Source of the DNA: Candidatus Saccharimonadota bacterium
GTDB lineage: Bacteria; Bacillota_I; Bacilli_A; Mycoplasmatales; Hepatoplasmataceae
Direction: 5' to 3'
Assembly (NCBI RefSeq): GCF_000582535.1
Contig: NZ_CP006932.1
Span: 330,001-362,000 of the forward strand
DNA: 32,000 nt
The notes beneath the pieces are model-generated. The model searched no databases. It was not told the DNA's origin and was given only the letters and a program-made list of their open reading frames with translations. Shown here piece after piece: positions 3,324-27,467 of the stretch (position 1 is the stretch's first letter; each line of letters opens with the position of its first letter). The translations under genes and the position numbers were made by a program.

Positions 3324-4907
3324 ATGAAACTAGCGAAGATTTATATTAAAAGATTTAAAAATATTGAAAATTTAGAAATAAATTTTGAGAAATATAAAAA
3401 TCTTATAAGTATCATTGGCTTAAATAATATTGGCAAAACAAATATTTTGGAAGCCATTTATTTTTTTGAAACTTTAAAAATTCGAAAATTACGCAAAAAT
3501 GAAGAAAAATTTCAAAATGTAAGTTTCTTTTATAAGTTAGAAGAAGATGACCAAAGAAATTTTGATGATTATTTTTTAGAAATGAAAATGCAAAATCAAA
3601 ATAAAAATAAAACAATTGAGAAAAATTTAAATGAAAAACACGAAAAGACAGCTGATAAGACATACAAAAAAAGCATAACAAATTGAGATAAATTACAAGA
3701 ATTTGAAATAACTGTAGGATGAGATGATGAAATAAGAGATTATGTTAGATTTTTTCCAGAAGAAATCACTGATTCAAAATATTTTTATAAAAATATATAT
3801 GAAAAAAATAAATTTAGAGTATTTTATTTTGATAAAACACAAAAGAAAGATTTTTTGGAAAATCAATTCTTTATTAAAAGTAAAATTTTTCGAAAAATTT
3901 TAAAAAGTATTAATCATGATCATTTTATTAAAAATTTTTATAAATATAACGATATTGAATTAAATATAGAAATTGGAAAAATCGAAAAAGCAATTAGTAC
4001 TTTTTTATTTAGTAATTGAAATGATCGTGAAAATGAAAAATATATTGTAAAATTAATTTTACTTGATCGTAAATTAGGAAAATTTTCTTTAATTATAAAT
4101 AATAAAAATAATAAGAAAAATACATTTCAACCTGAAGAAAGTAGTGATGGATTAATATCAATTATTTTTATGAAATTATCAATTGGAGAAACTTTTTTCA
4201 AAAGATTGATTTTAATTGATGAACCGAATACTTTTCTCCATTCTTTAGCACAAATTAATTTACTAAATTATTTTAAAAGTATTATTACAAAAAATGATTG
4301 TAAGTTAATTTATACAACTCATTCTGAGCATCTTGTCGATTCAGAAATTCCAATAATTTATAAAAATAAAAATAATTGAGAAATTAAAATTATAAAAGAT
4401 ATTAAAGAATATCAAGATATTCAATTAAAAGTATTAGCTAATAATTTATTAATAAATAATCCAATTAATTTAATTTTAAATAAGGAAAAAGATTTCTATA
4501 AATTTATTGAATTTTATAATAAAAAAGAATATAAAATGTCTCTTACTTTCATACATACATTACTTGAAAAAGAGATTAATATTTTCATATATAAATTAAA
4601 TTTGAAAGATAAAATTACAAGTAAAAGTACTATATATGATAAATTAAAATTAATATTCGAAAAAGTAGAATTAGATAAAATAAAAATTAATCTTCCAATT
4701 GAAAAACAATTAATTGAAATTATTAAAAATAATTTTAAAAATTCATTATATCTTGCTTCTTTTCGTAACAAAGCAAGTTATGCTCACATTAATAATATAA
4801 AAGATCGCGATCTTGAAAATATAATTCCTATTGTGATCCTTACTTATCTTGCAAATATTGAATTTTTAAGAAGATTTCGCGAAATTGCTATTGATGGCAA
4901 GAAATAA
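3324..4907 (+). CDS. ABC/SMC-like (OLD / AAA_15-type) ATPase fused to a C-terminal helical domain with an R-x6-H HEPN-like motif (527 aa)
   Basis: Track ORFs 3324..3686, 4170..4379 and 4536..4907 share one frame. The only intervening stops are TGA (3684, 3720, 4017, 4377). Motifs: Walker A GLNNIGKT within IIGLNNIGKTNILEAIYFF (3417-3440); Walker B/D-loop RLILIDEPNTFLH (4203-4241); H-loop LIYTTHSEHLV; C-terminal FRNKASYAH (Arg codon 4764, His codon 4785). A GAAGGGA Shine-Dalgarno-like element lies about 6 nt upstream of the ATG. Confidence 0.8.
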
Positions 4908-8742: not shown

Positions 8743-10239
8743 CTATTTTTTCTTTTTATTTAAAATATTATTAATCTCATTTAATTCTTCTTGGATTGTT
8801 CTAATTATTTCATCATCACTATCACTATCATCATAATCATATCTTGTGTTATTTATTCTTTTTCTTTCTACTCTTCTTGTAGATTTTAATAAATTATTTT
8901 CTTCTCTAACACCATTTTCAATTTTATTTACCTTATTAGATAATTTTTCAATTTCTTTTTCTAAAGAGAGAAGAATATTTTCCATTCGATTATTTTTTTG
9001 ATTTGATCTTTTATCAATATTATATTTTTCTTTATATTTTTCTTCGATTTCCCGTTCAAGTTGTTGACGTGCAATTTGTTCAGTATTTTGTCTTACTAAT
9101 CTTAAATTTTCTTCTTGTAATTTTTTTAAATTATCAAATTCATGATCGAGTGAACTTTTAAAATAATAATCATCATAATATTTATCTTTATTATAATTAC
9201 TATTATTATTTTGACCTTGATGATAATAATTTTCCCGTTGATATTTTAAACGATTTAATTCTTCATTTTCTCTTTTTAATCTTTCTAATTCATCTTTTTC
9301 ACGCATTATTTTTAGATATCTTAAATTACTTTCCTCTTCATCATATTTATCATCATATGATTTTTTACGTCCTCTTTTAGATTCTTGCTCTTTTTCAGCA
9401 CGTAAATTTTCAAGTTCTTTTTTTAAAGAGTCTTGTTCACTTTTAAGAATATTTAATAATTCTCTTTCTTGTTTTAAAATTTCAAGCTCTTGTTTTCGTG
9501 ATTCTAAATTTTCAACATTTACTTCAATTGTTTCTGGTTCATCTATTCTTTTTTCAATAGTTTTTTCTGAACTAATTTCTTCTTCAACTTGTTTTCTAGC
9601 TAATTCCAATGCTTCTTTTTCCGTTTGTTCTTTTGTTAATTCTAAACGTTTTTTCTCAAAATTTAATTTTTCTTGTTCTAATTTAAGTCTTTCTTTTTCA
9701 AGTTTAATTTCTTCAGAATCTTCTTTTATAACTATTTCATTTTCATTTTGTGGATTAGCATTTTCTTTTATTTGTTCTATATTATTAACTTTTTCAATAT
9801 TTTTATCTTCTTCAAAATTATTTACAGGTTCATTAGTTACTTCTGGTTCTTTATTACCTTCGCCTTGCTGTGTTTTCATTTCTTCTATCATTATTAATTG
9901 TTCAAGACGATTTATAGAATATTCTTCAGGATTTTTAATTCCAAGAGCAAGTGCTTTTTCAATTAATTTTGCTTGATCTTGATTATTATCTGTAAAATTA
10001 TTATTTGAAGATTTTGTTTTTTCTAATTTTTTACGTTCTTTTTTGGAAATTTTTTGCTTTTTTTCTTTTTTGGGATTTAAAGAAAACTCATCTTCCATTC
10101 CTGCTAATTTTGATTTTGTCTGTTTTTTCTTAATTATTCTATTTCTTAATTTACGATTTTTAAAAAAAATTATAAGTAAAAGCGTAAGGAACAACAAAAA
10201 AATAAAAATCAATACAATTAATGCGATCATTAATGGCAT
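8743..10239 (-). CDS. N-terminally membrane-anchored long coiled-coil protein (498 aa)
   Basis: Single uninterrupted ORF. It has one N-terminal TM helix (MPLMIALIVLIFIFLLFLTLLLIIFF). The following ~470 aa are highly charged E/K/Q/L-rich sequence (EKERLKLEQEKLNFEKKRLELTKEQTEKEALELARKQVEEE). The C-terminus has an acidic DYDDSDSDDE patch. Confidence 0.75.
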   Translation of the reverse strand: MPLMIALIVLIFIFLLFLTLLLIIFFKNRKLRNRIIKKKQTKSKLAGMEDEFSLNPKKEKKQKISKKERKKLEKTKSSNNNFTDNNQDQAKLIEKALALGIKNPEEYSINRLEQLIMIEEMKTQQGEGNKEPEVTNEPVNNFEEDKNIEKVNNIEQIKENANPQNENEIVIKEDSEEIKLEKERLKLEQEKLNFEKKRLELTKEQTEKEALELARKQVEEEISSEKTIEKRIDEPETIEVNVENLESRKQELEILKQERELLNILKSEQDSLKKELENLRAEKEQESKRGRKKSYDDKYDEEESNLRYLKIMREKDELERLKRENEELNRLKYQRENYYHQGQNNNSNYNKDKYYDDYYFKSSLDHEFDNLKKLQEENLRLVRQNTEQIARQQLEREIEEKYKEKYNIDKRSNQKNNRMENILLSLEKEIEKLSNKVNKIENGVREENNLLKSTRRVERKRINNTRYDYDDSDSDDEIIRTIQEELNEINNILNKKKK

Positions 10240-10380
10240 ATTGTTTTCTCAAACATTTTGTCAATCCACACCTAAAGTTTGTGAATGCATAAGATTTAAT
10301 GTTAATATTTTTAAACTCATAATTTTTATTATATCACGCAATTATTTTAATAAAATAAATTTTTATCTAAAATAAATAGC

Positions 10381-14639: not shown

Positions 14640-14720
14640 TTCTCTTTCCTCCAAAGACTCACCCTTTTTGGTAGTTTATAACTTTTAAAACCTAAAGGAG
14701 TGGTTGTTGTAAGATAATTT
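14640..14720 (-). promoter_or_regulatory. possible structured 5' leader of the rplU-prp-rpmA operon (L21-leader-like)
   Basis: This is a locally GC-enriched stretch immediately upstream of rplU. On the minus-strand RNA, CACUCCUUU can pair with AAAAGGGUG (8 of 9 pairs, including a G-U) across a ~25-nt loop, just 5' of the GGAGG Shine-Dalgarno. Ribosomal-protein leaders are known at this operon in Firmicutes. No covariance model was run. Confidence 0.25.
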
Positions 14721-16422: not shown

Positions 16423-16836
16423 TTAAACTTTCTGTAAATAATCTGTAAGCATAACATAAGCAGCAAATAAATCTTTATTTTTCTTATAATCTATTTTCTT
16501 ATTTTTAATAATTTCTTCTGCTCTTTTAGTTGTAAATCTTTCATCAAACAAAAAAATTTTAATATCTTGATTAATTTTTGCTTTAAGATATTTTAAGAAA
16601 ATTTCAACATATTCTGTTGCCTTTGTTTTTGTTCCATTTGTTTTAAGGGGATAACCAATAATTAATGTATCTAAGTCCTTATATTTCTCTAGTAAATCTA
16701 AAATTATTAAAGAAGCTTCTTCAAAATTAAATCTTTCAAAAAAATAATTTTTTAAAGGAATTGCAATAATATTATTCTTATCACTAATACAAACGCCGAG
16801 ACTTTTTTCTCCAACATCAATCGCTAATTTACGCAT
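16423..16836 (-). CDS. ruvX: putative pre-16S rRNA nuclease / Holliday-junction-resolvase-like YqgF (RuvX)
   Basis: [28 protein letters not shown]...LIIGYPLKTNGTKTKATEYVEIF...DERFTTKRAEE. It sits directly downstream of alaS, as in Firmicutes. Confidence 0.85.
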   Translation of the reverse strand: MRKLAIDVGEKSLGVCISDKNNIIAIPLKNYFFERFNFEEASLIILDLLEKYKDLDTLIIGYPLKTNGTKTKATEYVEIFLKYLKAKINQDIKIFLFDERFTTKRAEEIIKNKKIDYKKNKDLFAAYVMLTDYLQKV

Positions 16837-19528
16837 TTTCTTTTTCCTCGATAAATTTTTTAATGATTTCTTTTATTTTTATTAAATTAATAACTCTTCC
16901 ACCAAAAATATATAGTTGATTTTTCCCTCCCCCTTGTAAACCATTTTTTTTCAAAATTTCAATAAAATGATCAATTTCATTTATAAATAAATTATTTTTC
17001 CCTAAAATGATAAATAATGTATATTTATCATCTTTAAACAAAGCAAGAAATAATGTTTTATTTTGATAATTTTTAATTACTTGAAGAGAAATTGCAATTA
17101 AATCTTTTTGTAAAAAATTTTCTAAATCATAATAAATTAAATTTTTATTTTGCTCTAATATCTTTTCTAATTTGCTTTTTAATTTTTCGTTTTTTAAATT
17201 ATTGATAAAATCAAAAATATCTTTACTTTTTATAATTATATTATTTAATTTAAATTTAAAATTATCATCACTTAAATTTAAATTTAAAATTTCTTGTTTA
17301 ATATTATTTAAATCAATTAATTTTTCTGATGAAATAACTTTCTTATTTTCATAAATTAATTGATCAATTTTTTTTATTAAATTATTCCCTTTTTTATTTA
17401 ATAATTCAATATTTTGTGAAATTAAATATTTTTTGATTTCTTCTTTTCCACTTATCGCAATTAATCGATAAACTCCTGAACCTTTTTTTTCTAATTTTAC
17501 AATTTTAATTTCCTCAATTATCTTGATATTATCAACATGTGTTCCTCCACAAAGATCAATAGTTTTTTCATTTAATTTAACAACACGAACAAAATCCTTA
17601 TAATTTTTTGTTTCAAGATAACCTGGATTTAATTTTAAAGCATCTTCTAATTTAAGAATTTTAATTTCCGATTTAAATCCTTTTCTAATTCAATCATTTA
17701 CAATTTTTTCTGCTTTTTTTAAATCCTCTCATAGAAGATTTTTACTATAAGCAAAATCAAATCTTAAATAAGAAGAATCTACTTTAGATCCCTCTTGTTT
17801 TAAAGTTTGATTAAGTGTAATTTCTAAAGCTTTAAATAATAAATGTGTAGCAGAATGATTTTTTGTTAATTTTTCTCTACGATCAAGATCAATTTTTAAT
17901 GATACTTCTTGTCCTATTTTAAAAGGATTTTCCTCTAGCAAATGAATAAATAGATCATTTTCTGTTTTAAATACAGTAAGAACATTTATATTATCAATTG
18001 TTCCTAAATCAGATTCTTGTCCTCCAGAAGTTGCATAAAAAATTGTTTTATCACAAACTAAATAATTATCTTTAATTGCAATTACTTTTGCTTTTATTAT
18101 TTTTTGATAATCTTTATAACCTAAAAATTCTGTATTTTTAAAGTTAGGAAATAATTTTTTTTGTATTTTCATCCCTTTTGTAAAATTAGTATTTTGTTTA
18201 GATTTTAATTTAAATTGATCATTTAAATATGCTAATCTTTTATAATCGACTTCTATCTGATATTTTTTTGCAATTTTTTTAAGATAACTTAAATTTAAAG
18301 GTAATCCATATGTTTCATGTAATTTAAATAAATGATCTGTATCTAATTTATTTAATTCTTTATATTCAAAAAGAATTTTAAGAGCTTGTGTATATGTTTT
18401 ATTAAATTTATCTGCTTCATCAAAAATTAAATTTAAAATTTTTTCTTGATTTAATAATAAATGAGGATAAGCTTGCTTTTCATTTTGACAAATTATAGGA
18501 ATTAAATTTGTAAAAAAATCATAATTAATTTCTAATTGCTCCGCAATAATTATTGATTCTCTTAATAATCTTCTAATAACATATCCTCTGCCTGTAGAAC
18601 TAAAATTAGCTTGATCAGCTAACATAAAAGTAATTGATCTAGTAAAATCTGCAATTTTTTTAAATTCACTATTAATTTCTCATTGTTTTTTATTTTCTTT
18701 TAATAATTTTGTAGGATGATAATTCCATAAATATTTATAAGTTGATAATTTTTCTAATTCTTTAATTATTGGTTTAAAAATATCTGATTCAAAATTGGTT
18801 GGTGTTTTTTGAAATATCATTGCTAATCTTTCAAGTCCTGCACCTGTATCAATATTTTTCTGTGGTAATTCTTTATAATTATTATTTCCATCATTATTAA
18901 ATTCAGAAAAGACAATATTTCAAATTTCAATAAATCTATCATTTTCAATATCTCTTTCAATTAATGTTTTAGCATCTCGTTTATCAAAATTTATTCCTCG
19001 ATCATAAAAAATTTCTGTAGATGGACCACAAGGTCCCTTTCCGATATCTCAAAAATTAGTATCTCGACCCATTTTAAAAATATGATTTTTTGCAATGCTT
19101 TTTTTAATTCAAAAATTATATGCTTCATTATCATCTTCAAATACTGTAATATAAATTTTTTCTTTCGAAAAAGCAAAATATTTTTCTGAAAAAAGCAACT
19201 CATAAGCATAATCAATTGCTTCTTTTTTAAAATAATCACCAATTGAAAAATTACCAAGCATTTCAAAAAATGTTTGATGTCTTGCGGTAATTCCAATTTT
19301 ATCAATATCGCCTGTTCTAATTGAACGCTGATAATTAACAAGACGTTTGCTTGGTGGTTTTTTTTCTGCACTAAAATATTTTTTTAAAGTTGCAATTCCT
19401 GAATTTATTCATAAAAGTGAATTATCATTTTTTGGAATTAAAGAAGAAGAAGGAATTAATAAGTGATTTTTTTCTGTAAAAAAATCAATTCATAATTTTC
19501 TTATCTGATTTGAATTTAATTTTTTCAT
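16829..19528 (-). CDS. alaS: alanyl-tRNA synthetase (about 899 aa); the reading frame needs two compensating 1-nt corrections near 19441 and 19380
   Basis: [29 protein letters not shown]..., [21 protein letters not shown], the editing-domain motifs [13 protein letters not shown] and CGGTHV, and a C-terminal GGGK. Fragments 16829.. and 17729.. share the frame of the ATG. Codons about 30-49 lie in a frame displaced by 1 nt (see findings). Confidence 0.85.
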
Positions 19529-19664
19529 ACTAAAAAAATTATATCTTTTACAAATAGATTTATTAATTAAATTATGATTATTTTAGATTTTTTAAAATAA
19601 ATATTTCTAGGAAACAAAAAAAATATAATCACAAGAATAAATAATGTAATAGTAAAATATTATT

Positions 19665-20702
19665 TTAAATAGTTTTTTTACTTTTAGATAAGATTAATCC
19701 AACACTTCCTAAAAATAAAATATAAAAATAAGGAATTATAATATAAGCAGATCATAATAGACATTTGAAACTAAACATTTGATACTTAAATAAAACTCAT
19801 GTACTAGGATTATTTATATCAATTATAATTTGATCATTAGGAAGATTTATTCCTGGAAGAGTAATAGTTACATAACGAAAAGTATCATAAAGCATATCAA
19901 ATTGTCCTCATTTTGTAATTCAATAATAAGGATTTATCATCTGCATAAAATTACGAAATGTAAATGTATTAAAATATCTTTTTTCAATTGAAATATTTCG
20001 ATCAAAATAAGGTTTAAAAGTAATAATTTGACTTTCTTGATTATAGCTATATAAAATATCATTTGGATTACTACTTGGAGTTGGATTGAAAAAAATATCA
20101 ACTTCTAGTGTTCCTGAAAACATAATAAAAATAATAAATAAAAATATTGAAATTAAAATAAAATTAGCAAAATTTTTACTTAAATTTTGAATTAAAAAAG
20201 CAAGAACAAAAGTAATTAAGAAAATAATAATAAGATAGTAGATAAAAATTCCTCATCGATAATCAGTAATATTTCTTATTTGATAATGATGATCAGGAGA
20301 GTTTCAACTAGAAATTGCCATCAAATCTAATTGCATAAAAATAAAAGTAATAAATAATGTAACTAAAAAAGTAGCAAATGCTACAATTATTAAATTTAAA
20401 AATATCGGAAGATATATATATAATTTATTATTAACTTTTTGTTTTACTAATATATAAAAATGAGACCTACGAAAATTAAAAAAAAGCATTCCATAAAAGA
20501 TAAATACATTAAATACAATTGTAAATGCAAATACACTATCAATTACTAAATAAGAGGGAAAGCTTGTATAAAAAGCAATTGTAAATATAAGAGGAACAAA
20601 TAATATTAATATATAAAATCAAAATGACAAAATCATTTTTCTAAAATATAGAACTGTAAGATTTATTCAATTTATATTTCTATAAATTTTAAAAATTTTC
20701 AT
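19665..20702 (-). CDS. paralogous 6-TM membrane protein, copy 1 (345 aa)
   Basis: I translated the full length under code 4. MKIFKIYRNINWINLTVLYF...FNFRRSHFY...DYRWGIFIYY...SNPNDILYSYNQESQIITFKPYF...FTFRNFMQMINPYYWITKWGQFD...LPGINLPN...NPSTWVLFKYQMFSFKCLLWSAY... ending at TAA 19665-19667. All internal stops are TGA. Confidence 0.85.
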
Positions 20703-20760
20703 TTTTTCAAATTATAAAAAAATTATATTAAACATAATTATCATATAATACTTCTAATTA

Positions 20761-21807
20761 TTATATATTTTTCTCTTTTTTTGCAATAAAAATTCCTAAA
20801 AAACCATAAAACAAAATGAATAAATAAGGAACCAAAATATAAGAAGACCACAATAAACATTTAAAACTAAACATCTGATATTTAAATAAAACTCATGTAC
20901 TAGGATCATTTACATCAATTATTAATTGATTATTAGGAAGACCTATTCCTGGAAGAAGTAATGTTGTATTACGATAATTATTAAAAAGCATATCATATTG
21001 TCCTCATTTTGTAATTCAATAATAAGGATTTATCATCTGCATAAAATTACGAAATGTAAATTTATAAAAATACTTATTTTGAATATTTAATGGATCATTA
21101 CGATTAAAATAAGGTTTAAATGTAACAATTTGACTATCTTGATTATAACTATATAAAATATCATTTGGATTGCTACTAGGTACTGGACCTAAAAAAGCAG
21201 AAATTTCTAAAGTACCGGAAAAAACAACAAATAAAACAAATAAAAAAATTGAAATTATCATAAATCTATTAAAAGTTTTACTTAAATTTTGGATTAAAAA
21301 AGCAAGAACAAAAGTAATTAGGAAAAAAATAATAAGATAATAGATAAAAATTCCTCATCGATAATCAGAAATGCTTCGAATATGATAATAATGATCAGGA
21401 GAATTTCAACCAGGAACTGACATTAAATCAAATTGAAGAAATAAATATGTAATAAAAAGAGTAACAGTAAAAGTAAAAATTACAACTATTATTAAATTCA
21501 AAAAGATCGGAAGATAAACATATATTTTATTATTATTAAATTTTTGTGTTATTAATATATAAAAATGTGATCTTCTAACATTAAAAAATAAAATTCCATA
21601 AAATATAAGAACATTAAATACAACAGAAAAAGCAAATACACTATCAATTACTAAATAAGAAGGCGTATTCGTAAAAAAAGAAATACAAAATAAAAAAGGA
21701 ATAAAAATTACTAATATATAAAATCAAAATGATAACATCATTTTTTTAAAATAGAGGTTAGTAAGATTTACTAAATTTATATTTTTTTCAAAATTAAAAT
21801 AATCCAT
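20761..21807 (-). CDS. paralogous 6-TM membrane protein, copy 2 (348 aa)
   Basis: I translated the full length. MDYFNFEKNINLVNLTNLYF...FNVRRSHFY...DYRWGIFIYY...SNPNDILYSYNQDSQIVTFKPYF...FTFRNFMQMINPYYWITKWGQYD...DPSTWVLFKYQMFSFKCLLWSSY... ending at TAA 20761-20763. It appears about 70% identical to copy 1 by eye. Confidence 0.85.
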
Positions 21808-21855
21808 TTTTTATAGTAAAATAATTATCTGAATAATTTGATTCCTTTTATTATT

Positions 21856-22899
21856 TTAATTATGATATATTTTCTTTACTTTCAAAATTATAATTCCTAA
21901 AAAACCATAAAATAAAATAAAAAAATAAGGAAGAAAAAGATAACAAGATCATAATAAACTCTTAAATGAAAACATTTGATATTTAAGTAAAACTCATGTA
22001 TTAGGATCACTTGCATTTATTATTAACTGATCATTTGGTAAACCAATTCCTGGAAGCATAATTGTTGTAATACGATAATTATCAATAAAAATATCAAATT
22101 GTCCTCATTTTGTAATTCAGTAATATGGATTTATCATCTCTAAAAAATTACGGAATGTAAATGTTCTAAAAAATTCTTTCTCAATAAAATAGGGATCATT
22201 ATAATCAAAATAAGGTTTAAAAGTAATAACTCGATTAACAGGATCATAACTATATAAAAGATCATCAGGATTATTACTAGGTACTGGATTTAAAAATATA
22301 GTTATTTCTAATACTCCCGAAAAAAAGAAAAAAAAGACAAATAAAAAAATTGAAATTAAAATATAACTATTAAAACTCCTACTTATCGCTTGAATTAAAA
22401 AAGCAAGCATAAAAGTAATAAAAAAAATAATTGCAATATAATAAATTAAAATCCCTCATCGATAATCCGAAATATCTTTTATTTCGTAATAATGATCTGC
22501 ATTAGTTCAATTTGCGATTGCCATCCAATCTAATTGCATAAAAATAAAAGTAATAAAAAGGGTAATTAAAAAAGTAATAATACTAACAATAATTAAATTT
22601 AAAAATAAAGGAATATAAATAAATAATTTACTTTTAAATTTTTGTTTTACTAATGGATAAAAATGTGATCTACGAAAATTAAAAAATAAGATTCCATAAA
22701 AAATTAAAACATTTAATACAATTGTAAATGCAAATATATCGTTAATTGTAAGAAAAGCTGGTAGGATTGTATAAAAAGAAATTGATATCATTAAAGGAAC
22801 AAAAATCAGAAAAATATAAAATCAAATTGATAAAACCATTTTATTAAAATAAAATGAAGTAAGATTTATTCAATTTATATTTCTACTATTTTTATTCAT
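21856..22899 (-). CDS. paralogous 6-TM membrane protein, copy 3 (347 aa)
   Basis: MNKNSRNINWINLTSFYF...FNFRRSHFY...DYRWGILIY...NNPDDLLYSYDPVNRVITFKPYF...FTFRNFLEMINPYYWITKWGQFD...DPNTWVLLKYQMFSFKSLLWSCY... ending at TAA 21856-21858. One frame, with only TGA interruptions. Confidence 0.85.
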
Positions 22900-22932
22900 C
22901 TAAGCTTTAAAATTTATTTCTATAATAATACT

Positions 22933-23988
22933 TTAATTATGATATATTTTTACTTTCTTTGTAATTATAATTCCTAAAATTCCGTAGAAAAAAACAAAAA
23001 TATAGGGAACAAAAATATAACTAGATCACAATCAATTTGTAAATGAAAACATTATATAATCATATTTTACTCATGTACTAGGATCATTAGGATTTATCGA
23101 TATTGGATCTATTCCAGGAAGTGTAAGTGATGTAGTTCGATAAAAATCAACAAAAATATCAAATTGCCCTCATGCTGTAAGATAATAATAAGGATTAAAC
23201 ATCTGAATAAATCGATAAACGGAAAAATCTGTAAAAAATCTTTTATCATAAAAATCTGGATCATTACGATCAAAATAAGGTTTAAAAGTAAGAACTTGTG
23301 TATTTTGATTGTAACTATATAAAAGATTATCTTCTGTTCCTTCTTTAAATCTTGGTGTATCAAATGCAGAAACTATTCCAAAAGTACCAGAAAAAAGAAT
23401 TTCAAGAATTATTATAAATAAGCAAAATAAAAGATATGTATTAAAATTATTACTTAAAGTTTGAATTAAAAAAGCAAGAGTAAAAGTAACTAAAAAAGTA
23501 ATTATTAAATAATAAATTAAAAGCCCTCAATCAAAATCTTTAATATCTTTTATTTGATAATAATAATTATCATTATATGTTCAAGTTTGCAAAAATAATC
23601 AGTCTAAACTTTCAAATATTGCAAAAAAGCAAATTGCAATAATTGTTGTAAATATTACAACAATTATTAAATTTAAAAAAATGGGAAAATAAATAAGAAT
23701 TTTTCGATCATTAAATTTCTGACTAATTAAAGGATAAAAGTGTGATCGATGAAAATTAAAAAATAAGATTCCATAAAAAAGCAAAACATTAAAAATTACA
23801 GAAAAAGTAATTACACTATCTATTACCAAAAAATCAGGAGTTTGTGTAAGGAAAGAAAAACAAAATAAAAAAGGAACAAGAATAACTAAAAAATAAAACC
23901 AAAAAGAAAAAAACAATTTTTTTAGAAAAAAAACTGTAATTTTATTTAAATCTAAATAATATAAAAAACTTGTTTTTTCTTTTCTCAT
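22933..23988 (-). CDS. paralogous 6-TM membrane protein, copy 4 (351 aa, most divergent)
   Basis: MRKEKTSFLYYLDLNKITVFF...FNFHRSHFY...DFDWGLLIYY...EDNLLYSYNQNTQVLTFKPYF...FSVYRFIQMFNPYYYLTAWGQFD...LPGIDPI...DPSTWVKYDYIMFSFTNWLWSSY... ending at TAA 22933-22935. The start lies 36 nt downstream of the nrdF stop. Confidence 0.85.
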
Positions 23989-24024: not shown

Positions 24025-25008
24025 TTAAAAATCATCAAAATCCTCATCACTTAATTCATCATGAATAATAGGTTTAATATATCCATTTCCTTTAGTAGAG
24101 AAAAAATCATGAGTCTTTGTTTCTGTATCAAGTCCATTTAAAATAATTGGATTAATATCCTCATCAATTACATTAAAATAAGGTTCAAATCCAAAATTCA
24201 TAAGTGCTTTATCAGCATTATATTGAATAAATTTAATTACCTCATCAGCAAGATTAACTTTATTATAAAGATCTTTTGTATATTTAATTTCATTTTGATA
24301 AAGATCTAACATTAATTCATATACTTTTTTTGTTAATTTATCTTTTGTAGATTGATCAAATTTTTTGAAAATTTTTTGTGCTATTAAACCAACAAAAGTT
24401 CCATGAACAGATTCATCGCGAATAATAAGATTAATAATCTCTCCTGAACCTACTAATTTTCCTTGTCCAGAAAATCATAAAGGATAAAAGAAACCTGAAT
24501 AAAACAAAAAGGTTTCTAATAAAACTGATGTTGTGAGTGCAAAAAATAATTCTTCTTGATTATTTATCTTACGATAATAATAATCAACTTTATTTACTTT
24601 ATATTGTAAATATTTATTATTCTCTACTCAATTAAAAAGTTCATTAATTCTTTCGGAACTAGATAAAGTAGAAAAAATTGTAGAATATGATTTTGCATGC
24701 ATTTGTTCCATTGCTCCCATAAAAGAAAAAACTGCTTTTATATGTAAATCATCAATTTTTTCTAAAATAAGAGGCATTCCGACACCCCCTTGTTCTGTAT
24801 CTAATAAAGTAAGACCAGCTAATACTTTTTCATATGTATCTTTTTCTGCTTTTGTTAATTTATCTCAATGTTTACGGTCTTCTACTAATGAAATTTCTTC
24901 ATCTACTCAAAATTGTCTGATATTTTGATCTCAAAATAATTTTGTAAAACTATTTTCAATTTTATTTCAATTTATTGCTTTTATAATTTTTTCTTTTTTA
25001 TTAAGCAT
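24025..25008 (-). CDS. nrdF: class Ib ribonucleotide reductase beta subunit NrdF (327 aa)
   Basis: [39 protein letters not shown]...[18 protein letters not shown]...[22 protein letters not shown]...IIRDESVHG... with the acidic C-terminal tail SDEDFDDF. Fe/Mn-ligand EQMHA and RDESVHG motifs are present. It overlaps the nrdE stop by 8 nt. Confidence 0.93.
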
Positions 25009-27112
25009 GGCAAGTTTCACATTCCTCTATTTTTAAATTTCTTGTTCTTGTATAATATAAAGCTTTTAAACCTTTTCTATTTGCATAAAGATAATATTTT
25101 ACTAACTCTTTTGTTGAAATTGAACTATCAACATAAAGAATTGTTGATACACCTTGATCAATATGCTCTTGAATTGTAGCTACCATATCAATAATTTTTT
25201 TTTGATCCATATTGTAGGCAGTTTTATAAAATAAGATATTTTCTTTTTTTAAATAAGGCATCGGATAATAAGTAATTGAATTTGCATATGTTCTTGCTTC
25301 AATTATTGAAGTAATAGGCATCACTGATGGAGTTGCATTTGCAATATAAGCTGTTGATTGATTTGGTGCTACTGCTAAACGATAAGCATGATAAAGACCA
25401 TATTTTTTTACATTATTAGCCAATTCTTTTCAATCTTCAATTGTTGGTAATTTTATATCTTTAAATAATTCTTTGATTTTTTCTGATTTTGGTGAAAAAT
25501 CTTCTACAAAGTATTTTTTAAAATAATTACCATTTGCATACTCTGATTTATCAAAATCTTTAAATTGTTTTTTCTCTCTAATTGCAATTTCCATTGATTT
25601 TTTAATTGAATAAAAATTAACAGCACTAAAAAAAACACTTGCAAATTCTCTTGCTTCTCTTGCTTCATATCTTATTCTATTTTTTGCAAGATATCCGTGT
25701 AAATTTAAAGCTCCTAATCCAACAGCATGTAATTCTTTATTTGCTTTATCTATTCCAGGTGCAAATTTTAATTCACTAAGATCAGTAACTGAAGTTAATG
25801 CTTCCATTGCGATTGAAACTGTTTTTTCAATATCTTTATTTTCCATAATCTTTGCAATATTTAAAGAACCTAAATTACATAAAACATCTCTTTTAATTTG
25901 ATCTTTTTCTTCATAATTATTTATAATTGAAGTTTCTTGTAATTGAAATATCTCTGTACAAAGATTGCTCATTTTAATTTGACCAATTTCTTTTAAAGGA
26001 TGAACTTTATTTGCATTATCTTTATACATAATATAAGGATAGCCCGATTCAAGTTGTGTTTGGGCAATTTTTAAAAGTAATTTTCTTGCCGGAATATAAT
26101 TTTTACTAATTCTTTGATCTTTTTCTAATTTTTCATAATAATTATTAATATCAAGATCATCTAAATCTTTTTTATAATATTTTTTAACATCATGAGGAGA
26201 AAAAAGAGCCATAATTTTATTTTCTTTTGCAAGATTAAACATTTTATCACTAACAATAAGTCCTAAAGAAAGAAATTGAATTCGATGTTTTTCATCTGCA
26301 TTAATTTTTTTTGTATCTAAAAATTCCATTACATCTTTATGAAAAACATTTAAATAAGCTGCCCCTGCCCCATTTCTTTGATCTAGTTTATTAGCAAAAG
26401 AAAAACTATCTTCTAATAATTTTAAAATGGGCATTATTCCTGCTGTTATATTTCTAATTCCTCTTAAAGATGAACCTCTTGATCTTATTTTAGAAAGATT
26501 AACAGCAACTCCTCCACCAATTTTTGAAAGATGCATTGAAGTTCCTAAAATATAATTTATTGAATTTAAATTATCATCCATTTCTAATAAAAAACAAGAA
26601 ATCATTTCTCCTGAATTTATTCTTCCTGCATCTTGCATTGTTGGTGTTGCCGGTTGATAGCGACCATTTATAATTTCATCTGCAATTGCTTTTGCAATTT
26701 CATAATTACCACGACCAAGATATAAAGACAAAATTAAAACACGATCAAAATAATCTTCATAATTAATATTTTTATCAGTTGATTTTAATGTATATTCATT
26801 TAAAAATTTCTTTGCAGCCATATAAGAATCAAAAAGATGATTTGCTGATAGTAAAAAATTATAAAGATCATTAATATCTTGTTTTGAATATCATTTTAAA
26901 ACAATCGGATTATAAAGATTAAGATCAACTAAACTTTTTACTTTTTCATAGCCATTTTTTACAAATTGATAATTTTTATAAAAATTTGCAAGAAAAATGT
27001 CTCTTGCTATTTTATCTTTTTCTAATTGATAAAAATCTTCTTCTTTGTTTTTTAATTTTATTTGATTATTTAATTTAATATCAATTAAATGTTCGTGATA
27101 ATTAATTTCCAT
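25001..27112 (-). CDS. nrdE: class Ib ribonucleotide reductase alpha subunit NrdE (703 aa)
   Basis: Three track fragments (25001.., 25430.., 26891..) share one frame and are joined by TGA. Motifs: SCFLLEMDDNLNSI, NLCTEI, GLGALNLHGYLA, and the C-terminal ...CETCHA redox tail. Confidence 0.95.
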
Positions 27113-27467
27113 TTAGATACTCCAATATATTTTTTCTTAATTCTACAATCTGTGTTGTTGTTCCGGCCAATTCAATACTAGCAAAATATTTAACATCATA
27201 ATCTTTTGCAATTGTTTTTGCTGCTTTGCAATAACTCTGTCCTCAATTTCTATTCCCAGATCCAATTACACCAATCATATTTTTACTATTTTTTGTAAGA
27301 AAATCTTTAACTTCTGATTGAATTTGTCCAAAACCAACTGATGAAGCAATTAAAATATATTTATCATTAATAAATAAATCTTTTTTAATTTCTTGGCACT
27401 CAAATAAAGCAAGTTTATCTGCGATTTTTTTTGTATTTCCGGTCAATGAAAAATACACAAACTTCAT
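27102..27467 (-). CDS. nrdI: flavodoxin-like NrdI (121 aa)
   Basis: MKFVYFSLTGNTKKIADKL...YILIASSVGFGQIQSEVKDFL...IGVIGSGNRNWGQSYCKAAKTIAKDYDV...ELAGT. The TGA at 27243 is read as Trp. Stop is TAA 27102-27104, overlapping the nrdE start by 11 nt. Confidence 0.88.

Follow-up and report, generated by a model that had tools for sequence, protein, structure and literature searches.

What kind of protein is encoded by the four tandem genes that lie between nrdF and alaS in Candidatus Hepatoplasma crinochetorum Av? The organism is a symbiont of the isopod midgut gland with a genome of 657,101 bp and 582 coding sequences (CDS) (PMC3942034), and the four genes, referred to here as copies 1 to 4, are located in the 32-kb stretch of its DNA that was analysed and is called the window throughout (Table 1). 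The array is not discussed in the two published Hepatoplasma genome papers, PMC3942034 among them. An initial annotation, made from the sequence of the window, had described the products as an unrecognised kind of membrane protein. This description had to be given up, as the predicted structure of copy 3 matched only type V (ABC-2 fold) membrane domains of ATP-binding cassette (ABC) transporters in the Protein Data Bank (PDB). The four genes probably encode very divergent, paralogous, stand-alone transmembrane (TM) subunits of such transporters that are energised in trans.

An AlphaFold2 (AF2) model of copy 3 was built on a 56-sequence alignment (A3) and reached a pLDDT of 91.7 and a pTM of 0.91. 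Foldseek comparison of the model to the PDB returned type V membrane domains in 50 of the 50 top matches (probability 0.82–1.00, TMq up to 0.51, TMt up to 0.65), including those of ABCH-9C, Cdr1, AtABCG25, ABCG5/8, ABCG1, ABCG2, Pdr5, NosY, Wzm, TarG and PmtCD, while nothing was found among viral structures. The overall fold predicted for copy 3 is thus like that of solved type V membrane domains. As an internal control, an 11-sequence Hepatoplasma-only alignment was used, which resulted in an AF2 pLDDT of 53 and in random GPCR/TRP Foldseek matches at a probability below 0.06.

Type V membrane domains are defined by an elbow helix, a coupling helix and re-entrant TM5-TM6 helices (Thomas et al. 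2020, PMC8386196). In the copy 3 model a non-hydrophobic, weakly amphipathic helix (residues 3–25, muH 0.24, mean H −0.05) precedes TM1 and a short helix at residues 81–89 sits, as modelled, where type V transporters have the helix that couples to the nucleotide-binding domain (NBD). Between TM5 and TM6 the model has helices at residues 252–259 and 261–269, the first of which is strongly amphipathic (muH 0.84), and the region of the second bears P261, a residue invariant throughout the 56-member superfamily alignment. By their position in the model, helices 3–25, 81–89 and 252–269 would correspond to the elbow, coupling and re-entrant-helix regions. A small beta-hairpin is also present in the TM3-TM4 loop.

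Hydropathy analysis of the array proteins gave six TM peaks, at residues ~24–42, 57–75, 101–119, 153–171, 182–200 and 324–342, with basic segments at the N-terminus, in the TM2-TM3 loop and in the C-terminal tail. The layout described in the initial annotation, namely six TM segments, a basic N-terminus and tail and a large loop between TM5 and TM6, was in this way reproduced, and the peaks and basic segments together with the six long helices of the model indicate the type V arrangement of six TM helices with both termini in the cytoplasm. The TM5-TM6 loop spans 113–117 aa by hydropathy and ~120 aa in the copy 3 model, in which it forms a predicted extracellular domain of four short beta-strands and three helices that contains an NPYYW motif. 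Aromatic residues (F/W/Y) make up 20–26% of this domain. It had been regarded as the best-conserved part of the proteins, but its mean pairwise identity was 0.58 as compared to 0.66 in TM4, 0.64 in the TM2-TM3 turn, 0.63 in TM6 and 0.62 in TM2. With 28 invariant columns out of 120, the extracellular domain is conserved to about the same degree as the TM core, and other parts are conserved better. One of the most conserved segments is the TM2-TM3 motif (FYGILFFNFRRSHFY), which is common to a class of paralogues that are linked to an ATPase (VYGIYFYNIRNSTFY, IYGLFFFNLRKSTIY), described below.

For the array proteins themselves, sequence searches were consistent with the fold but fell short of established thresholds. 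Copies 2 and 3 matched Pfam ABC2_membrane (PF01061) at E 0.0018 (18.3 bits, residues 10–197 against profile positions 8–180 of 211) and at E 0.0019 (18.2 bits), respectively, both matches spanning TM1-TM5 in register and lying below the gathering cut-off of 26.9 bits. The initial statement that the proteins hold no recognisable Pfam-type motif is therefore right in that none passes the threshold and incomplete in that these two sub-threshold matches exist. A word-index search of 5.8 billion proteins yielded only 11 clusters, all of them from Hepatoplasma genomes or from two Logan assemblies sharing the alaS or nrdF flank; a second word-index search with alignment A3 added nothing, and a genome-collection scan with alignment A1 recovered no genomes beyond the two Hepatoplasma ones already known. 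When 1.84 billion representatives were searched exhaustively by profile, 53 proteins were returned at E≤1e-3, only three of them below 1e-30. The distant relatives are laid out alike, with five TM helices followed by a large loop and TM6, and their amino-acid composition is mollicute-like. The consensus of 50 distant relatives scored 33.5 bits against PF12698 (ABC2_membrane_3), which is above the cut-off of 31.6 bits for that family, with TM2-TM6 in register. Taken one by one such matches were rare, as only 2 of the 50 reached E≤0.001 for PF01061 (best 1.3e-4), and NCBIfam gave nothing useful for these 50. Alone, the sequence evidence for ABC-2 membership is weak.

Further evidence comes from the genomic context of the relatives. 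One of them, P0064 (446 aa, AHK22533.1), is encoded elsewhere in the Av genome, in a paralogous operon at a different locus (L005 1–7766 and L006 144–6667) with the order [369][446, P0064][836-aa ATPase][478][400][EngB GTPase]. The public name of AHK22533.1, 'Cation transport ATPase', looks like a misannotation. The ATPase carries two ABC_tran domains, a ~110-aa N-terminal extension and a ~240-aa charged, K/E-rich linker between its NBDs, and the four membrane genes of the operon all match the array profile (E 4.5e-20, 4.8e-10, 6.4e-9 and 2.9e-4). Related operons were found in H. vulgare (L015; [304][388][813 ATPase][406][325][EngB]) and in two mollicute-like assemblies, L007 ([772 ATPase][400][387][361][EngB]) and L010 ([772 ATPase][386][311][394][EngB]). 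In fact, every relative with a fully readable context, that is in Av, H. vulgare, L007 and L010, adjoins a 772–836-aa ATPase with two ABC_tran domains. Pfam gave nothing significant for ten operon permeases. The best NCBIfam matches of the ATPase NBDs were PQQ_ABC_ATP and DrrA, the latter being the NBD partner of an ABC-2 permease, and homologues of the tandem-NBD ATPase were limited to Hepatoplasma and a small number of uncultured genomes.

HMM-anchored alignment (HMM, hidden Markov model) separated the permeases into two classes and placed the array in one of them, the A-type, along with Hc_op446, L7_361 and L10_394 (E ~1e-19 to 1e-20). The array and the A-type proteins share the motifs YG..FFN.R.S..Y (TM2-TM3), RWG..YY and SF.IQ..S, a P.Y/F..N motif in the extracellular domain and PY in TM6. 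Homology of the array to permeases genetically linked to a DrrA-class tandem ATPase is demonstrated by sequence and comparative data and by the predicted structure. As far as can be judged from gene content and alignment, the array represents a tandem expansion, specific to Hepatoplasma, of the A-type class of a mollicute ABC system, whose parental core operon consists of a DrrA-class tandem-NBD ATPase and three or four permease paralogues. The ABC-2 assignment draws on the ATPase-linked context of the paralogues, on the register of the sub-threshold Pfam matches and on the relatives' consensus in addition to the model. The initial annotation had itself named an ABC-2 permease with its ATPase elsewhere as the outcome that would speak against it; predicted structure and paralogue context point essentially to this, without a confident sequence-profile match.

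Several results weigh against the array proteins being ABC-2 subunits energised in trans. The fold is assigned from a predicted and not from a solved structure. None of the four proteins reached a gathering threshold of the Pfam ABC-2 clan, copies 1 and 4 giving no match, and NCBIfam returned nothing for the four. HMM searches of all PDB sequences with alignments A1, A2 and A3 found no relatives. Comparison of the same three alignments to single E. coli YadH, YbhR and YbhS sequences by hhalign gave probabilities below 1%, as for negative controls, which is uninformative because the targets were single sequences. As the Pfam threshold was not reached and similarity to solved structures was not detectable in these searches, the proteins are filed as a very divergent, lineage-restricted branch. 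The initial annotation had also noted the lack of an adjacent ABC ATPase; this was borne out, as no transporter-type ABC ATPase is encoded in the 32-kb window, and in H. scabrum and strain Ps none was found over the ~9–10 kb that flank the array on each side. The tandem-NBD protein, finally, is already accompanied by two B-type permeases in the core operons of L007 and L010. An A-type protein would on this account be a third, supernumerary subunit, and its direct docking onto the NBDs is not assured.

The absence of an ATPase in cis at these three array loci and the supernumerary position of the A-type protein would both be accounted for if the array had kept the ABC-2 fold and become independent of an ATPase, acting as a passive channel, a scramblase, a receptor or an immunity/exclusion protein that binds a host or competitor molecule. 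The strong conservation of the extracellular domain, with its 28 invariant columns and a ratio of non-synonymous to synonymous substitution rates (dN/dS) of 0.25–0.49, fits such a role as well. We nevertheless consider it unlikely, as the TM2-TM3 coupling segment is highly conserved and common to the ATPase-linked paralogues, which would not be expected had NBD docking been lost. An immunity function is further opposed by the lack of any PADLOC defence-family match and of bacteriocin or toxin genes nearby in the window, and membership in a known anti-phage defence or immunity family was rejected as PADLOC-DB gave no match for copy 1 or copy 3 at E≤0.001. Of the three roles put forward initially, transporter, receptor or immunity family, the first is retained and the other two are left with no positive support.

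Two other loci have a bearing on the ATPase. The 527-aa AAA_15/AAA_21 ATPase encoded at window positions 3324–4907 (+), the only ATPase of the window, was rejected as a partner, being an AriA/OLD/GajA-type AAA_15 protein and not a transporter NBD. Its best PADLOC matches were AriA, OLD, GajA and PtuA (E down to 4e-18), and by sequence it is of a defence type. In H. vulgare (AP027131, L015 1–656) a conventional ABC-2 permease that passes Pfam (PF01061/PF12698) was observed. The genus Hepatoplasma may have a second system of the ABC-2 type and, with it, a further candidate for the ATPase partner.

Put together, the following mode of action is proposed for the array as ABC-2 subunits. Each protein would start with a cytoplasmic elbow-type helix followed by six TM helices, both predicted termini being inside, and the conserved TM2-TM3 helix is predicted to lie at the site where type V permeases dock onto their ATPase. 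The ~120-aa domain inserted between TM5 and TM6 is predicted to be extracellular, at the position of the ABCG/ABCH extracellular loop. The proteins would form homo- or heterodimers powered in trans by an NBD encoded elsewhere, for which the 836-aa tandem-NBD protein of Av is the best candidate. An A-type subunit may dock onto the NBD, replace a B subunit or serve as an accessory. A hydrophobic or amphipathic substrate could in this manner be moved out of or across the membrane, with the aromatic-rich extracellular domain shaping an exit or acceptor site, and the array may be read through from nrdIEF.

Bacterial stand-alone ABC-2 permeases (PF01061, PF12698; e.g. Wzm, TarG, NosY, PmtD and YadH) are, like the array proteins, separate six-TM polypeptides of ~250–380 aa with both termini inside. 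They have an elbow helix and a TM2-TM3 coupling helix, to which helices 3–25 and 81–89 of the copy 3 model would correspond. Their partner NBDs are of the DrrA class, like the ATPase of the array's paralogues. The predicted fold of the array matches NosY at a TMt of 0.64–0.65 and also matches Wzm, TarG and PmtCD, whereas sequence similarity is at or below detection. In contrast to these permeases the array has no adjoining ATPase gene and occurs as a tandem of 3–5 copies, and its large extracellular domain is placed between TM5 and TM6 and not between TM1 and TM2 as in PF12698 proteins. The best structural matches of the array were in fact eukaryotic ABCG/ABCH/PDR transporters (ABCH-9C, ABCG2, ABCG5/8, AtABCG25, Cdr1 and Pdr5; E 0.014–0.1, probability ~1.0). 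These share the type V fold and an enlarged extracellular TM5-TM6 region, the domains having been compared by position only, but have the NBD fused N-terminally, and sequence identity is 9–14%.

The nearest well-known analogue of the parental mollicute operon is E. coli YbhFSR, in which the tandem-NBD protein YbhF is accompanied by the ABC-2 permeases YbhS and YbhR. The mollicute ATPase differs from YbhF in its ~240-aa charged inter-NBD linker, and the mollicute operon has three or four permease paralogues in two classes where YbhFSR has two permeases. YbhS and YbhR showed no similarity to the array-type permeases in the hhalign comparison to single-sequence targets. E. coli has nothing equivalent to the nrdF-alaS array.

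The array was present in every Hepatoplasma-like lineage recovered. Where both flanks were assembled (the window, L001 and L002) it was always located between nrdF and alaS, and of the contigs that end inside the array L003 keeps the nrdF flank while L004 and L014 keep the alaS flank. With open reading frames (ORFs) re-called under genetic code 4, Av has four copies, H. scabrum five intact ones and H. crinochetorum Ps three, while at least two were counted in the divergent Logan lineage L014. The initial description as a lineage-specific expanded family is in keeping with this, the array being confined to Hepatoplasma-like lineages at a copy number of 3–5. In the deposited annotation of H. scabrum (AP027133, L001 6790–12113) three of the five array genes are truncated (262, 329 and 216 aa); under code 4 these read without interruption from an ATG over 347, 348 and 349 aa.

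The array lies directly downstream of the class Ib ribonucleotide reductase (RNR) operon nrdI-nrdE-nrdF (24025–27467, −). A functional tie to RNR, for instance in Mn/Fe or nucleoside handling, had been raised as speculation and would explain why the array is kept behind nrdIEF and co-transcribed with it. Adjacency of nrdF and the array was indeed observed in 4 of the 4 loci assembled there (the window, L001, L002 and L003), with spacers of 19–36 nt and no terminator; array spacers in general span 19–58 nt and are without terminator-like hairpins, and in strain Ps neighbouring array genes overlap by 14 and 11 nt. The short spacers and the lack of a terminator make it plausible that the array is co-transcribed with nrdIEF. 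Beyond conserved adjacency nothing was found to support the tie, which we hold to be very unlikely. The substrates of type V/ABC-2 systems, those matched by Foldseek included, are lipids, polymers, peptides and drugs. The locus has no substrate-binding protein and no metal-binding motif, the ATPase-linked paralogues adjoin EngB and not nrd genes, and the array varies between 3 and 5 copies while nrdIEF is single. With a coding density of 94% over 657 kb (PMC3942034), tight adjacency is moreover the rule in this genome.

Copy number that varies by lineage in a tandem array could also point to a family of variable surface antigens, or to decaying duplicates of which one copy matters, and the dN/dS of 0.43–0.47 among recent Av paralogues is above that of housekeeping neighbours. 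Selection was estimated by the Nei-Gojobori method, and the values are approximate because dS was partly saturated. For the array dN/dS was 0.17–0.47, as compared to 0.15 for nrdE, 0.09–0.10 for nrdF and 0.26–0.29 for alaS; copy 1 against its orthologues gave 0.24–0.37 and copy 4 against copy 3 gave 0.43. By domain the range was 0.28–0.45 in the TM core and that given above in the extracellular domain, with no domain-level diversifying selection. Values well below 1 in both domains, together with 12 of 12 complete copies being intact in three complete or near-complete genomes, make antigenic variation or decay of the array highly improbable. The array has no lipobox in any of copies 1–4, no notable simple-sequence repeat of the phase-variable kind and no long identical gene-conversion tracts between copies. 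The initial annotation had likewise seen neither lipobox nor repeats and had argued against antigenic variation, in which it was upheld; decay of all copies but one, which it had named as a finding that would speak against it, was not borne out. Membership among mollicute variable surface proteins, which carry a lipoprotein signal, phase-variable repeats and diversifying selection, was accordingly rejected, as were pseudogene decay and recent gene conversion.

In a neighbour-joining (NJ) tree copy 1 grouped with the first copy of the H. scabrum and Ps arrays, to which it is orthologous (65–71% identity to Sc_1 and Ps_1). Inner copies grouped by genome, copies 2, 3 and 4 forming an Av-specific cluster, and a separate alaS-proximal clade (Sc_5, Lg4_last) was absent from Av. 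Within-genome paralogues had a dS of 0.42–0.56, below or at the low end of the between-genome range of 0.53–0.93, a pattern consistent with duplications that postdate the split of the lineages or with old gene conversion. As read from the tree and the substitution rates, the array evolves by birth and death, with all copies under purifying selection. The spacer between copy 4 and alaS (window 19529–19664) measures 136 nt in Av as compared to 31–85 nt in other lineages, and Av is without the divergent alaS-proximal copy that H. scabrum, L004 and L014 carry. A deleted fifth copy might have left the longer spacer as its remnant.

By its predicted fold, the array belongs to a known type of transporter that has undergone an unusual, lineage-specific expansion, and it is no new kind of system. 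What is unusual in it is the ~120-aa TM5-TM6 domain, the lack of an ATPase in cis and the expansion to 3–5 copies in a minimal genome. Of the 582 genes in Av, 8 belong to the superfamily. For so reduced a symbiont genome this is a high proportion, and it points to lineage-specific pressure on a transport function in the isopod midgut gland. The array would provide a natural case in which the membrane subunits were multiplied and their ATPase was not, and suggests, as far as the model goes, that ABC-2 permeases can drift past Pfam and NCBIfam detection and yet keep their fold. A predicted fold and a probable role may thereby be given to twelve complete genes that are annotated as 'hypothetical protein' in three Hepatoplasma genomes, to further copies on three assembly contigs and to ~50 relatives in uncultured mollicutes, and public annotations are corrected for the three truncated H. 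scabrum copies and the misnamed paralogue. A more specific idea, which we regard as doubtful, is that the array proteins are interchangeable membrane modules that time-share one tandem-NBD motor, or that work independently of an ATPase, and that their conserved aromatic-rich extracellular domains handle host-derived lipids, sterols or surfactants. If true, a minimal symbiont in the isopod hepatopancreas would diversify what it transports by adding copies of the membrane half of an ABC system alone.

The features of the locus are given in Table 1. The window has a G+C content of 21% and its frames are open only with genetic code 4. Each array ORF contains 6–8 in-frame TGA codons and ends in TAA, and the TGA codons map to conserved Trp columns (RWG, WGQ, TWV and LWS) where they alternate with TGG among the copies, which confirms code 4. 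The initial outline of four intact head-to-tail genes of 345–351 aa was exact in its coordinates. Spacers between the copies are 33, 48 and 58 nt, and copy 1 starts 36 nt after the nrdF stop with, as initially stated, no hairpin in between; no G+C-rich hairpin was found in any array spacer. Pairwise identity among the copies is 48–70% for protein, with copies 3 and 4 the pair at 70%, and 60–84% for DNA at a period of ~1.1 kb. A promoter scan gave 81 sites where 79 were expected and is uninformative at this G+C content.

Table 1. Positions of the array, its flanking genes and two segments of copy 3 in the window.
Feature	Position	Strand	Description
Copy 1	22933–23988	−	351 aa, adjoins nrdF; intact code-4 ORF, 7 in-frame TGA
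Copy 2	21856–22899	−	347 aa; intact code-4 ORF, 8 TGA
Copy 3	20761–21807	−	348 aa; copy used for the structure model
Copy 4	19665–20702	−	345 aa, adjoins alaS; intact code-4 ORF, 8 TGA
Copy 3 residues 74–89 (FFNVRRSHFYILITQ)	21541–21588	−	TM2 end and short cytoplasmic TM2-TM3 helix; model helix 81–89
Copy 3 residues 198–317	20857–21216	−	aromatic-rich predicted extracellular domain between TM5 and TM6; from DSSP of the model
nrdI	27102–27467	−	Pfam Flavodoxin_NdrI match
nrdE	25001–27112	−	from translation and syntenic loci
nrdF	24025–25020	−	Pfam Ribonuc_red_sm match
alaS	16829–19528	−	downstream array boundary, from translation; same boundary at five Hepatoplasma-like loci

Elsewhere in the window an Rfam L21_leader (RF00559) was matched at 14645–14715 (−), upstream of the L21-Prp-L27 genes, with 37.3 bits at a cut-off of 36; this was the sole Rfam match. 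A multi-TM ORF of 430 aa with no Pfam match is located at 85–1377 (−), and a 532-aa K/E-rich, coiled-coil-like ORF with one N-terminal TM segment at 8743–10341 (−), just downstream of ftsZ.

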